Source: Octopus vulgaris (taxonomy: Eukaryota). Taken from it: DNA of 64,000 nucleotides. A program made the translations under genes and the position numbers. The stretch lies in contig OX597814.1 in the NCBI GenBank assembly GCA_951406725.2, positions 90,582,001 to 90,646,000 on the forward strand, written 5' to 3'. Shown piece after piece: positions 1,853 to 35,670 of the stretch (its first letter is position 1; every line of letters begins with the position of its first letter). Below the pieces are notes generated by a model. It was not told where the DNA came from, searched no databases, and worked only from the letters and a program-made list of their open reading frames with translations.

Positions 1853-3709
1853 ATTAACAAAGAAGATGAGGACAAATATCCGTCAAATGTAAATAATGTA
1901 CATAATTCCTCATCTCTTAAAAATAGAACTGTATTAAAATAAGTACCGATTGAATCGGTGTAATCGACTTATCCCTGCTGGCTTCGTGCTAAAATTAGAT
2001 ATTTGTATAGCAAATTCCCACCGTAAGCATAATTTCCTAACTTGAGTGGAGATTTGTACTCCATTAATTGTAACGTAGTACTTGATTATAGGTCCTCAAT
2101 TAGAGTCGTTGGAGCGCTGTATAAGTTTGTTTTGTGATAATCATTTGATTTTCTCATGATCAATTCTCACAGATGTCAAACTTAATTTCAATGATTTCGT
2201 GTTCGATAAATAAAGGACTGATATAGCGTCGATTTCTCTTTTTCTCACATTTTTTCTGTCTCTCTATCTCTCTTTCTGGAAGAAATCGGTTGTGGCCAGA
2301 TCCAGGGAGGAATAACCTCTGCTTAGGCTAAATATTACCCAGTGCACAGCGTATGGTCATCACGAGACCCTTACGATCCCATTAAGGAATTGAAGGCCCA
2401 AAGCAAGGCAAGTAATGATCATTATCTATTTTATTGATCCTAGAAATGTGCAAGGTGAATTTAACACGACATAATGTTGAGTATCGAAATACATTGTGAC
2501 CACCGCTTTATTTATTCTGCAAATGAACGCCAACAGCAATAACAAGAACAATAAGAAAAGCATCGAACAAGAGGAAACATATACACAGTGAATCTCTTGG
2601 CTAGAAATAGCAGCCAAACTTTTCCCAAACCACTTTATTGTATTAAATGAAAAAATATATTACTTCATACCTTTAAAAGTACAGTTGTCGTAGCAGGAGC
2701 ATCACCGTTCATTCGTGTGCTCCGTCAGAGCTTATTTTTAGCAAAGCAACAACTCCAATGATTAAAAGAAGAAAAAGAATATTATTTTTTAAAAAAATTG
2801 TTTTTAATGACCGCATGGGGAAATGACGAAAATGCACGAACACACTCTTATGAAGAAAAAATAAACATTTGGAACTAAACGTATGCTCCATACAATATTA
2901 ATACAATTACAATAACACGTTCAAAGAATGACTACAAAGAAGCATATGGAGATGCACTTATTAATGTATTAACAGCACAAAATAATAGGGACGATTCTTA
3001 TAACTGTATCAGTATTGTCATACAGGCAAAAGGCTACAAACTACTGAGGTCGGGGAGTACTGATTAACCATATATGATTGGTGCTTATTCTTAATTTACT
3101 GATTCATGTGATATTATGACGAAGATAACTAGTTGGAATGTGAGAGAAAATTCAATCACAGTACACACTACAAGTGTTCTGTCTAACGCTCTTCCATTTC
3201 TACTGTTCCATCTCCGTCTGCTATCTCTTCATAATAAGCTGAATAATTACCTATAAACTTTTAAATTACCTGAAACAATGACTACAATTAGGTGTCTTAG
3301 TATATGGGTATTAATATCATAATAGTTTAATTGTATGTGACACTTGAAACTTGGAAGTCTTAGAAATACATATTCTCGTATGGATATTTATTTTTATATG
3401 TGTACTTAAAATTGTTGATTTCACTCTATTTAGAGGTGACACCTTACACACGTTTTGATTTATTGATATATTCAAGAGCGTCTGCAAAATTTTATTCATA
3501 TTATATTTCATTCATATTATATTGCTCGACTAATTTTATCGACTTCGAAGAGTTGATCGCTGTCGTTTTTAAATTCAGAATCTAAAGGGTTACAAGTATA
3601 TGATCCAAAACATTTTATCCGATAAGCTAAGCATTTTGCCACTCCACTTACAGCAATGGTAATGAAGTCTGTGTAACAAAATGCGGTTATATTCGTAAAT
3701 ATCCATTTA

Positions 3710-14317: not shown

Positions 14318-14773
14318 TTCTTTTACTTGTTTCAGTCATTTGAAGACCAGTACCAGCGTCGAAGAAGAGTAGATGGACAACGAATGGGAAACAGCTAGGA
14401 AGTGAAGAGAGAAAAAAGCACACCCTGTAAAGGACAACCCCCATCCCACACCCACCCAGCTCCTACCCACATCCACTTTACCCCAACCACGCCCTACAGA
14501 CACCAACCCTCTCTATACTTAGCCTGACATAAACAAATCGACCCTAAGACTTATTCTTTGTAAGCCTAGTACTTATTGTATCGGTCTCTTTTACCGAACC
14601 GCTAGTAACGGGGACGTAATCACACTAACGCCATTTGTCAAGCGATAGTGGGAGGGCAAACACAGATACACAAATATATACATGTATATATACGACGGTT
14701 TCTTTCAGTTTCCGTCTACCAAATCCACTCACAAGGCTTTGGTCGGCCTAAGGTTATAATACAAGACCCTTGC
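14318..14773 (-). mobile_element. SINE family B 3' part (host of the tandem ORF1-only elements; its 5' end lies at 18067-18106)
   Basis: Colinear with 7691-8000. Breaks at ...AAGACCCTTGCC (14774). Interrupted at 14343-14535 by an inverted fragment. Confidence 0.8.
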
Positions 14774-16461
14774 CTTACATAGAGGGGTCAGTACAAGATG
14801 GGGAGAAAAAGAAACTACAAAACGAATGAAAAGAATGAATTAATATCGTGAAAGATGAAATGAAGCCGTTCGGCCCCACCCACCAGGCGACTTCATTGAA
14901 CCTGTAAATATAAAAAATTTTAAACAATAGTTTATTACACAAATATTAGTGACAGCTAATTATCATTCATCCGAAGATATTTACATCATGCTTATATGAA
15001 ATATCATAAACACTTTCTTTTTTAGGTGGTGAGCTGGTGTCCAGTTTCTTGACCCAGCACTCATAGTCACGATTTTCCTCAAAGTCCTTTAATCTCGATG
15101 TGTATGCTGGGTCTGCCGCTACGCAAATAAGGTACACGGGTATCCCTTTTACTCCTGATACATCCACCTTTATGATTCTCTCCCACTAGTCTATTTGATT
15201 ATACACTTCTTCATTTAGACCACTGTACACTATAACACATTTTCCCCGGGCGAGGTTGGGGAAATTAGAGGCTCTTGTGTGTTTATGCTTGTGTTTATGT
15301 CAGGCTGAGTATAGAGAGGGCTGGTGTCTGTAGGGCGTGGTTGGGGTAAAGTGGATGTGGGTAGGAGCTGGGTGGGTGTGGGATGGGGGTTGTCCTTTAC
15401 AGGGTGTGCCTTTTTTCTCTCTTCACTTCCTAGCTGTTTCCCATTCGTTGTCCATCTACTCTTCTTCGACGCTAGTACTGGTCTTTATCTGCGGTGCAAC
15501 TTCACTCTCCTTTTCTTCAACCTCCACAAGTAGTGACGCACCAGCTACATTCTCATTCTCTTGTCTCTCTTCATCCTTCTCAAGTTGTGGAGGGCAATCC
15601 GTTGTAATGTGGCCTTTTAGGCCACACTTATAGCACCGCGGAATCCTCCCTTCCACTCTGACTTTCAATGTTGCCTCTCCGAATGTGATGGTCTCAACCA
15701 TCTTTTCAATATCTTGTTCGGCAACGTGCAGCACCATATCAAGGCTTTGTTCTTGCCAGTTCCTGTGGGGTGTTCTGGTGGCTTGGAGGACCACCACCGT
15801 CTCCTCCATGCCTAGCAGTAAGGCAGCTACCAGCCAGGCTACATTCACTTCAGGGGCTATTTCTTCTACCGTAACCCTGGAAGCACGTCTCCCAAGGTAT
15901 TCGGGTAGCAGAACCACTTCATCAGTTCTCAGCGGTGTTGCTGAGTGCAACCTAGTGATAGCTACCTCCCAAAACCGCACACCACTGTTTCAAAGTTTTT
16001 ACCTCTAGTGAGGTAGGTAATATCCCTGCGAGATTGGTTTGAGCGCCTTTTCCACTTGAGCCGTTGGCATAACTTCAATTTTCCTGGCTGCTATCGAGTT
16101 TGTTCTATAAATTACAATTTTCTCATTTATCTCCTTCTAGACTTCTTTGGGGTAGAACTTTCACGTTGTTCCCCCTTTTTTAAGTGTTTCCTTGAACGTG
16201 CTCAGCTCCTCCGGGTTTATTTCTTCAACTTTTTCTTCTCTCGCCGCCGCTGCCTAATTCTTCATCTCTATTTCCTTGTCCATCTTGTTCAAGCACTCAA
16301 ACAATTTCTCCACAAACGAATCATATTCTAAGGAAGGACGCCCCTCCATCACAAGAGGAAAAACGTCGCACAGCCAAAAACACACGCACAATCAAAAAAC
16401 ACGCACAGCTAAAAAGAATAATACGCCCCTCTCGTACACTCCAAATGAATCCTGGGAAACC
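14773..16461 (-). mobile_element. ORF1-only (HAL1-like) non-autonomous retroelement, copy A
   Basis: Broken ORF from ATG 16349 (MEG...) to stop at 14967, with CCHC knuckle CYKCGLKGHITTDC (15594-15635). No RT or endonuclease. Shares 5' start and 3' UTR motifs with copy B. Confidence 0.75.
14967..16349 (-). pseudogene. LINE ORF1/gag-like protein (basic N-terminus, RRM-like middle, single CX2CX4HX4C knuckle, low-complexity linker, conserved C-terminal domain)
   Basis: ORF pieces 15456-15980 and 14967-15167. Similar to copy B: LHSAT.L.T.EVVLLP..LGRRASRV.VE...PEVNVAWLV.A.LLGMEE. Confidence 0.78.
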
Positions 16462-16475
16462 GGAAGCAAGCTTCT

Positions 16476-18066
16476 CTATTTCATGAAATTGGTCATGAAA
16501 ACCTTACATAGAGGAAACAGCACAAGGTTGGGACAAAAAATACAAAACGAATGTAATGAATCAATTTAAGTGTAATGAAAGATGAAATGAAGCCGTTCGG
16601 TCCCACCATTCAGTCCCACTTCACTGAATGTGTTAATGCAACCATTTTCTCTCTTTTTTAAAAACAAAAGACATTAATTTACATTAATATTCAAAGTACT
16701 TTTGTCACTGCTAGTTTCCACTTCTTTGGGAAACGTCTATCTCAAGTTCCTTTAAAGTATATGCATAACTTACCCTTTTCGGTATTTTTCTGGTGTCCAT
16801 TTTCGTAAACTACCAGTCAAAATCAATTTCTTCCTCGTAATTCGTTAATCTCGAGAGGTATTCCGGGTCCGCTACTGCACAGCAAACGTCCTCGGGTAAC
16901 TCCCCTACTCTTGTTACTTACTCTTCTATTGCTTTGTCCCATGTCTTTATCTCGTTGCAAAGTTCTCCTTTTTCCTGTTATCGAAATGCTGGCGTCGGGA
17001 AATTTGAGGCTCCTGTGTGTTTTCGCTTTTGTTTATGTCATAGGGAGGGACGGTGCATATAGGGAGTGGTTGGGTAGAGTGAGTGTGGGTGGGAGCCGGG
17101 TGGATGCGGGTTTGGGTTCGTCTTTTACCACGTGTCTGCTTTCTCCACTTCCTTCTCTTTTTTTCTGCCGTTTCCAAACTTGTATTCAACTCCTCTTCCT
17201 CAACGCTGGTAAATGTTCTCGTCTGTAGTGCCATTTCAGTCTCACGCTTCTCCTCAGCCTCCACGGGCAGTGGAGTGTCAACTACTTTCTCAGGGACTTG
17301 CCTTTCCTTAGCCTTCACAGATTATTAAGGACAATTCACTCTAATATGACGTTTCAGGCCACATTTATAGCACCGCGGAATCCTCCCTTCCACTCTGACA
17401 TTCAGCGTCACTTCTGCGACCGTGATTTTTTCAACCATACTTTCAATATCTTCTGGGTTAATCTGTACCACCATATCCAGACCCTATCCTAGCCAGTTTC
17501 TGTAGGGTGTCCTTGTGACCTACAGTAGCACCAACCTTTCTTCCATGCCCAGCAGTATGGCAACCACCAGCCAGGCTACATTCACTTCTGGTGGTCTATT
17601 TTCTACCCGAACCCTGGAAGCACGTCTCCCAAGGAATATGGGTAGAAGTACTACTTCCTCGGTGTTTAATGATGTGGCTGAGTGCAATCTGGCGGAAGCT
17701 CTCTCACGAAACTGCACTTCCACCGTTCCGTACATTCTTCCCCTGTCAAGGTAGGATATCTCTTGCCAGACTGGCCTCAATACCTTTTCGACTTGTGCCT
17801 CCGACACCACTTATATCTTCAATTTTTCTCTTTGCCGCTTCATCGTAATTCCTTGTTTCTATTGCTGCGCCAATCTTGTTCAAACATTTCACTATTTCTT
17901 CCTCAGACGACACAAATTCTGAAGAAGAAGAATTTAAATCCTTACAACTCATCACACGACCCCCCTCCATTAAACAAAAGGGAAAACATTGTACTACCTA
18001 GACAACCAAAAAACGCACGTGTGTTATTCACAAAGACAGTAGTCGAACTAAACAAAACGCTATACC
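16476..18066 (-). mobile_element. ORF1-only (HAL1-like) non-autonomous retroelement, copy B
   Basis: Broken ORF from ATG 17970 (MEG...) to ~16711, with knuckle CYKCGLKRHIRVNC (17331-17372). Flanked by GGAAGCAA[G/A]CTTCT at 16462-16475 and 18067-18080. Confidence 0.75.
16711..17970 (-). pseudogene. LINE ORF1/gag-like protein, copy B
   Basis: ORF pieces 17746-17970, 17520-17810 and 16947-17318. C-terminus reads ADPEYLSRLTNYEEEIDFDW*FTKMDT, versus ADPAYTSRLKDFEENRDYECWVKKLDT in copy A. Confidence 0.78.
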
Positions 18067-18106
18067 GGAAGCAAACTTCTTACCACGCAGTCACTCCTGC
18101 ACCTAT
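18067..18106 (-). mobile_element. 5' end (A-box region) of the interrupted SINE family B
   Basis: Reverse complement ATAGGTGCAGGAGTGACTGCGTGGTAAGAAGTTTGCTTCC matches the intact head at 35516-35554. Confidence 0.75.
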
Positions 18107-35514: not shown

Positions 35515-35670
35515 ATAGGCGCAGGCCTGGCTGTGAGATAAGAAGGTGGCTTCCCAGCCACATAGTTTCATGTTCAGTTCCACTGCGTGGCATCTTGAGG
35601 AAGTGTCTTCCACTATAGCCTCAGGGCTTGTGAGTGGATTTGGTGAACGGAAACTGAAAGAAACCTGTTC
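35515..35670 (+). mobile_element. SINE family B 5' part with intact tRNA-like head
   Basis: A-box-like TGGCTGTGAG and B-box-like GTTCAGTTCC, followed by GAAGTGTCTTCCACTATAGCC. Confidence 0.75.

Follow-up and report, generated by a model that had tools for sequence, protein, structure and literature searches.

Results

Two ORF1-only elements at one nucleotide of a SINE

We analyzed a 64,000-nt stretch of the Octopus vulgaris genome (the window), in which two diverged elements, copies A and B, lie head to tail on the minus strand inside a short interspersed nuclear element (SINE), and we searched the genome (2.8 Gb in 227 contigs) for their relatives. Each copy carries one broken open reading frame (ORF1), and copies of a 14-nt SINE sequence, the 14-mer, stand upstream of B and between B and A (Table 1). 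A sequence-only reading of this DNA had described the same arrangement, and our coordinates and 14-mers agree with it. A and B are very probably decayed, nonautonomous ORF1-only copies that sit at a fixed nucleotide of the SINE and likely borrowed the enzymes of a long interspersed nuclear element (LINE) of the L1/Tx1 group. Their family has a fixed insertion site with a 14-nt duplication, lacks ORF2, and shows selection on ORF1, and a LINE at the same site shares its 3' tail.

The ORF1 of A contains three in-frame stops and several frameshifts, and that of B contains six stops and a 146-nt deletion (322 codons checked in each). No ORF2 match was found in A or B, which bears out the earlier description of both units as having a broken ORF and no reverse transcriptase or endonuclease. 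Three matches to the 14-mer with at most two mismatches occur in the window versus 0.23 expected, and none of 100 shuffles reached three; the third match (35541-35554, two mismatches) lies inside an empty SINE. A and B are 68% identical over their BLAST match, and each has nearer relatives elsewhere (L003 for A, at a p-distance of 0.148, and L030 for B, at 0.217), so the pair is not a local duplication. The two copies were most likely inserted separately, as had been suggested.

The locus was also damaged. The deletion that had been noticed at 14773, with an estimated loss of 40 to 45 bp of SINE and the 3' end of A, spans ~85 nt: ~26 nt of the A tail, the third 14-mer of the stack, and ~45 nt of SINE are gone, with GGC microhomology at the break. 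The inverted insert at 14343-14535 carries private stops of A, replaces ~30 nt of SINE, and has microhomology at both ends. It looks like a later local event, a recent templated repair insertion from ~800 bp away.

Table 1. Features of the stacked insertion in the window, in minus-strand order, with comparison features last
Feature	Position	Strand	Remarks
Host SINE 5' end, A-box-like part	about 18081-18103	-	most family copies have this head upstream
5' copy of the target 14-mer, AGAAGTTTGCTTCC, one mismatch	18067-18080	-	
Copy B, ORF1-only, complete 3' tail, 1591 bp	16476-18066	-	broken ORF1, ATG 17970 to ~16711
Hairpin in the B 3' tail, 4-bp stem and 5-nt loop	16491-16503	-	
Middle 14-mer, AGAAGCTTGCTTCC	16462-16475	-	separates B from A
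Copy A, ORF1-only, 1689 bp	14773-16461	-	broken ORF1, ATG 16349 to 14967; ~26 nt of tail end deleted
Longest in-frame ORF1-core stretch in A: end of RRM1, RRM2, CCHC knuckle	15570-15989	-	RRMs by homology to modeled LINE ORF1
Host SINE remainder, downstream of the ~85-nt deletion	14318-14772	-	
Inverted 194-bp duplicate of A sequence 15292-15485 (identity, 97.9%)	14343-14535	+	replaces part of the SINE
Empty copy of the same SINE site	35533-35565	+	for comparison

One target site across the genome, without ORF2

The genome search with copy A gave 64 matches from the 40 candidates scored of 500, and 30 loci were fetched. The 29 loci other than the window are L002 to L030; the flanks of L008 and L013 were read by eye, and L015 and L016 are a near-duplicate pair. 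The target stands at the 3' end of 24 of the 29, at the 5' end of 19, at both ends of 17, and at one or both ends of 26, with a target-to-target spacing of 1.5 to 1.8 kb where no later insertion lies inside. A search blind to the flanks, using only the last 20 nt of the element, found 31 places, 29 of which have the target (≤4 mismatches) next to the tail. The AGTAG variant of the target occurs at none of the 31, and a few of them look like duplicates of one insertion. The flanks are thus fixed and not random.

Not one of the 29 copies had an ORF2 match, in line with the earlier claim that full-length copies lack it. A search with the ORF1 core only, which does not favor the short form and overlaps largely with the other 29 loci, found ORF2 within 1.5 kb downstream in 0 of 29. 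The family is uniform in length and in its 3' untranslated region (UTR). Terminal branches measure 0.06 to 0.14 (0.18 for B, for which few relatives were sampled), and we infer an age of roughly 20 to 35 million years if the rate quoted in the available part of PMC13282606 applies. The family is old; no intact copy was seen among the loci examined. At a further locus, L034 (G000:C19:1012500-1022499), rearranged fragments of the family are clustered in both orientations without the target 14-mer.

Selection and predicted fold of ORF1

We compared private and shared changes in ORF1 of 28 copies (298 codons, non-CpG). Singletons comprised 365 nonsynonymous or stop changes (28 of them stops) and 98 synonymous ones (pN/pS 1.07). 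Variants present in at least five copies comprised 39 nonsynonymous and 53 synonymous changes with no stops (pN/pS 0.21; P = 2e-11), and no such signal appeared in two wrong frames. Since the shared variants are mostly silent and the private ones neutral, the master copies needed the ORF1 protein (ORF1p), and ORF1 of the master lineages was under purifying selection. The dN/dS check proposed earlier therefore came out in favor of coding function for the shared variants. The comparison with HAL1 in the sequence-only reading stands insofar as the family encodes ORF1p alone, is uniform, and had its coding capacity selected (0.21 versus 1.07). It does not extend to a HAL1 in the strict sense, given an ORF1 of the RRM-RRM-CCHC type (RRM, RNA recognition motif) and no match to PF02994 (mammalian L1 ORF1) in Pfam scans of the ORF1s.

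An RRM-like core and a CCHC knuckle had been read from the letters. The knuckle is matched in A by Pfam zf-CCHC at E = 0.00097, just under the curated cutoff; no RRM was found by Pfam sequence search. For the core, we relied on an AlphaFold model of the LINE ORF1 core (69 sequences; predicted local distance difference test score, 94), which is 39% identical to the A core and whose top Foldseek matches were all tandem RRMs. The ORF1 core is accordingly predicted to consist of two RRMs and a CCHC knuckle, in A by homology. A profile search of the PDB returned zinc knuckles only, a wide VIA-align comparison gave middling scores (Z ≤8.6) to RRM and ACT folds, and leads in the ESM Atlas were CCHC clusters and a ZCCHC3-like RBD cluster at 0.90. 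The C-terminal domain of A had no Pfam match and no convincing alignment with other ORF1s. Among named proteins, an ORF1 homologue from Octopus bimaculoides is the closest (52%). P0028 is an O. bimaculoides UniRef entry of this ORF1-like type; it looks chimeric, its N-terminal half resembling L091 (69%) and its C-terminal half L086 (73%).

A LINE at the same site

Decayed LINEs lie directly downstream of three family copies, at a duplicated 14-mer (L031, L032, and L118). L032 has a homologous ORF1 and an ORF2 with endonuclease and reverse transcriptase (EN-RT) and, as a query, led to a young 5441-bp LINE family that occupies the same SINE position at 19 of 19 fetched loci. These loci are 96.4 to 99.9% identical to L077; ORF2 is unbroken in 7 of the 19 and both ORFs in 2. 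The ORF2 of the young LINE matches Exo_endo_phos (PF03372), RVT_1 (PF00078), and zf-RVT (PF13966) in Pfam, and among PDB entries it matches human L1 ORF2p best, at 228 bits versus 74 bits for R2, so its ORF2 domains assign the candidate partner to the L1 group. The closest named reverse transcriptase homologue is from Argonauta hians (64%), and no named Tx1 sequence was among the homology-search matches. The young LINE does insert sequence specifically into a multicopy target, a trait that is common in, and not exclusive to, the Tx1 clade. The search for an autonomous partner proposed in the sequence-only reading thus found a LINE with the same site and tail, and we regard this EN-RT LINE as the likely partner of the window family. 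Long open frames that by eye resemble Penelope-type reverse transcriptase/GIY-YIG elements occur at L035 and L085, with two near-identical opposite copies in L035.

The LINEs and the ORF1-only elements have about 60 terminal nucleotides in common (local score of 48, reached in 0 of 1,000 shuffles, versus a shuffle maximum of 40; young LINE and L120). Most of the window-family 3' UTR upstream of these last ~60 nt aligns poorly with those of the LINEs. Within the shared tail, a hairpin with a 4-bp stem and a 5-nt loop is paired in 89% of cells, and three of its four pairs have changed on both sides, far above slid controls; in B, all four pairs are preserved, one by a change on both sides. The hairpin was found from the alignment, and whole-tail folding recovered no common structure. 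We regard the covarying hairpin as supportive evidence.

Independent insertions and the origin of the 5' target copy

The test for independent insertion used 17 of the 20 fetched LINE loci, leaving out one old family and two loci without a normal SINE flank. The young LINE bodies are 1.0% divergent, compared with 7.1% for the flanking SINEs, and the flank difference was greater in 135 of 136 pairs; the insertions are therefore independent. In a second, young ORF1-only lineage, target variants private to a locus (L129 and L134) appear in both copies of the duplication, and a 5'-truncated, 338-bp ORF1-only copy lies at the site (L124). In the young LINE, five loci have a 3' target copy that does not end in TAAC; at four of them the 5' copy does, and an extra T is frequent there. 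This mismatch indicates that a few target bases travel with the 5' end of the RNA, and the distal ~7 nt of the 5' target copy are element borne in the young LINE. The earlier reading of the 14-mer as a target duplication consequently holds for the 3' side and for the duplicated private variants; the 5' side is in part contributed by the element in the young LINE.

Other ORF1-only lineages at the site

The second ORF1-only lineage, ~2.0 kb long and with units about 1% apart, has intact ORFs in L125 and L134. Its dN/dS is 0.2 between subfamilies and 0.36/1.8 between the two intact ORF1s. Its ORF1 core has only 23% identity with that of the window family and 26% with that of the young LINE, yet its final 19 nt almost match those of the latter. 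Near-identical young units, 0.1 to 1.1% apart, form arrays at L121 to L123 (G000:C5:78745900-78757200 and C1:29272500-29277600); array lengths are at least six units (L121 and L122) and at least three. In L121 the same extra T is present at every junction, which fits repeated insertion or unequal crossing-over. We sampled 16 loci with other 5' types: six are ORF1-only units of 2.0 to 2.7 kb closed by tail and target, four have ORF2 inside, and the remaining six were assigned to neither class. Contigs of presumed RNA runs cover the young ORF1-only element; they show no strand or start and were not used as evidence.

Trees of ORF1 (FastTree on 77 rows; IQ-TREE and approximately unbiased [AU] tests on 27 of the 77) recovered the window family (100/100), the old plus young LINEs (100/99), and the second ORF1-only lineage (100/100) as clades. 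The AU test did not reject grouping with the LINE ORF1s for the window family (P = 0.064) or the second lineage (P = 0.050), so an origin of the ORF1-only elements separate from the partner is suggested and not established.

ORF1-only elements have diversified beyond the SINE site. Matches to P0028 (L086 to L115) are ORF1-like elements without ORF2, several with a related tail and with other or weak targets (for example, a tail followed by GAG), and L086 has a long unbroken ORF right after the 3' end of a LINE.

The host SINE and its target site

The SINE head had been called tRNA-like. By eye, motifs in it resemble A and B boxes; ARAGORN called no tRNA at the window SINEs and Rfam had no tRNA match for one empty SINE copy, so neither tool confirmed that part of the sequence-only reading. 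Elsewhere in the window, an ARAGORN call of tRNA-Asn(att) (96 nt, 2546-2641, minus strand) is probably spurious. A role for the SINE's RNA polymerase III (Pol III) context was also raised earlier. Dependence on the SINE promoter is unlikely because the inserted element comes between the A-like and B-like boxes and T5 to T6 runs lie in the 5' UTRs. Runs of T terminate Pol III transcription. We propose that the SINE provides a landing site that is both abundant and dispensable. Octopus SINEs already described include OR1, OR2, and OK.

Exact empty sites in the genome number 4,092 for AGAAG..TTCC, 28,609 for AGTAG..TTAC, and 28,847 for AGTAG..TAAC. The pattern of head, 14-mer, and GGT gave 68 exact SINE-head/element junctions with about nine different element 5' ends, sorted by eye. 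Old-variant junctions read CTTCC/GGT, and one common 5' type repeats CTTCC/GGT (TTCCGGTTCCGGT). The string CTTCCGG resembles an ETS-type promoter motif, and a 5' motif of the element may overlap the last target bases.

The site variants differ with age, older LINE and second-lineage members lying in AGAAG and younger ones in the AGTAG variants. Tails of the young type are followed by AGAA in none of the 85 listed cases, although these first bases could derive from the RNA, and none of the 19 young LINE loci lies in the TTCC variant, a nonsignificant result given that this variant makes up 6.6% of the exact empty sites (4,092/61,548). The split between old and young variants is explicable by SINE succession alone, and a change in endonuclease specificity is possible; a shift of specificity is not separable from timing.

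A different abundant SINE (L087, L090, L095, L107, and L110) has the same LINE-like tail at its end (GTCTGTCCTTGTTTGTCCCCTCT...AATAAAGAAATA) and occurs in head-to-tail stacks. For these two reasons, it was probably mobilized by a LINE of the L1/Tx1-type group at issue here.

Discussion

From the shared site and tail, the window family was likely mobilized in trans by the ORF2p of an autonomous LINE. In the model that we favor, RNA polymerase II would transcribe an element from the element's own 5' UTR, with a start inside the duplicated target or immediately behind it, and ORF1p made in cis would coat its own RNA. LINE ORF2p would then bind the 3' hairpin, and its endonuclease would nick the bottom strand at GGTA/AGAAG and prime reverse transcription. 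A top-strand nick ~14 nt downstream would produce the duplication and a regenerated site. Since the duplication regenerates the site, head-to-tail stacks such as B-A become possible.

Several observations weigh against this account. The genome searches score the best ~40 candidates, and among the 29 loci 5 are without the 3' site and 10 without the 5' site, although we attribute most missing end sites to later insertions or deletions. The direct test of independence is confined to young elements, namely the LINE and the second ORF1-only lineage. Among the candidate LINEs for the movement of the window family, L032 has an interrupted 3' end, and the old LINE L085 has an internally shortened tail that matches weakly (17 of 1,000 shuffles scored as high). 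The hairpin has only four pairs, picked by eye from related rows, so the shuffle control overstates its significance.

A single insertion into a master SINE could have created a SINE-ORF1-SINE composite that the SINE's own partner LINE then copied as a unit. Most copies are indeed full length and flanked by both halves of the SINE, and 5'-truncated window-family copies at the site were not demonstrated. A composite of this kind does not fit the roughly nine different 5' ends at the same junction, the mixed stacks of unrelated elements, or the different nearest relatives of A and B. For the young families it is largely refuted by host SINEs that are 7 times more divergent than the inserts, by private target variants on both sides, and by the 5'-truncated copy at the site. 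We consider a composite origin very improbable.

It is similarly hard to credit that an ordinary LINE gave rise to the 1.7-kb units by internal deletion or mispriming and that they are not a self-propagating family. Their ORF1 is homologous to LINE ORF1, with 34 to 38% identity in the core, and the AU test leaves a grouping with LINE ORF1s standing (P = 0.064). The units are nonetheless uniform in length and 3' UTR, ORF2 is absent from all copies checked, and the subfamily-level changes were under purifying selection; the window family is a clade by itself (100/100), separate from the LINE ORF1 clade (100/99), and except for the final ~60 nt, most of its 3' UTR aligns poorly with those of the LINEs. 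The enzymes might also have come from another LINE family, or integration might have followed a different path, for instance recombination at the core of the 14-mer. Several LINE 5' types do occur at the site (ORF2 lies within 4 of the 16 sampled loci), and the distal part of the 5' duplication is element borne in the young LINE. This explanation, too, has very little chance of being correct, given the tail and hairpin common to the LINEs that we found, a 5' truncation that fits target-primed reverse transcription, and copies in none of which a long terminal repeat (LTR), integrase, or recombinase was seen.

Within the reading of A and B as ORF1-only passengers of a LINE, we offer a broader picture only tentatively and think it doubtful: a three-tier chase of SINE, LINE, and ORF1-only element, in which a long-lived guild of ORF1-only parasites, evolving as separate lineages, kept or swapped 3' hairpin tails so as to match the LINE active at the time. 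LINE and passengers would have tracked the SINE as its site went from AGAAG..TTCC to AGTAG..TTAC/TAAC, the genome would preserve a record of changed endonuclease specificity, and the chase would still be running. The ORF1 cores of the ORF1-only lineages are 20 to 38% identical to those of the partner LINEs.

Two habits known separately, that of ORF1-only passengers and that of LINEs targeting a different mobile element, meet here in an invertebrate host, with a SINE as the target. The LINE (L077 and L072) and the ORF1-only element (L125 and L134) both have intact young copies, and tens of thousands of sites are empty, which makes several questions testable: why a passenger must keep ORF1p in cis, how much 3' structure ORF2p needs, and whether the specificity of an APE endonuclease is retuned as its target repeat evolves. 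Units of 1.7 to 2.5 kb without reverse transcriptase have likely been missed or labeled as CCHC genes in cephalopod annotations (P0028 is an example).

An O. vulgaris annotation lists, in its available part, 13 recently active L1-Tx1 families with 421 insertions and 2,288,644 bp, or ~5.4 kb each (PMC13282606). This mean length matches the 5441-bp young LINE, so the autonomous partner may already be in that library. The words "target," "nested," and "ORF1" are absent from the available text of that paper, as is "HAL1" from its supplement. The available parts of PMC4758252, PMC10294476, PMC9004415, PMC8869645, PMC3747384, and PMC9115989 contain nothing on a SINE-site system. We found no report of a SINE-targeting ORF1-only family in the literature searched, which was without most subscription papers, Repbase, and Dfam, and relative to that literature the combination of ORF1-only elements with targeting of another transposon appears to be new.

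Nonautonomous LINEs that retain ORF1 are known as HAL1 in mammals, HeT-A in the Jockey clade, and Ag-Sponge in the CR1 clade; no ORF1-only element from the Tx1 clade appears in the available parts of the papers that describe them (PMC5753468, PMC5786205, and PMC3627910). As described there, HAL1 has L1-group ancestry and encodes ORF1p alone, with a coding capacity kept under selection that implies ORF1p in cis and ORF2p in trans. The window family resembles it in encoding only ORF1p, under selection, and in its L1-group ancestry. Unlike HAL1, it lives in an invertebrate, has an RRM-RRM-CCHC ORF1, the arrangement called type I (PMC4120745, available part), and not coiled-coil/RRM/C-terminal domain, ends in a hairpin tail and not in poly(A), uses one site in a SINE, and coexists as one of several deeply diverged lineages.

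Target-specific Tx1-clade LINEs offer a second comparison. According to the available part of PMC4494074, Tx1L inserts in the piggyBac-type Tx1D, Tx1-Mar in Mariner-N4_AMi, Tx1-9_AMi in Harbinger, and Tx1-8_Crp in LTR elements, other members target small nuclear RNA genes and microsatellites, and SINEU-3 is a nonautonomous passenger sharing a Tx1-clade target; no SINE is listed there as a target. The octopus system is like these in having an APE-type EN-RT LINE, a fixed site in another element, tandem stacks, and nonautonomous passengers at the LINE's target. It differs in that the target is a SINE head and the passengers are protein-coding ORF1-only elements and not SINEs.

For the tail, the closest parallel is with ZfL2-1 and ZfL2-2, stringent L2-clade LINEs that recognize a 3' stem-loop (PMC4176376, available part). 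The octopus LINE and its passengers differ from these in clade, and their stem is 4 bp, with a loop that varies between families and putative binding by ORF2p. As in ZfL2, a short conserved 3' stem-loop is common to the LINE and its passengers.

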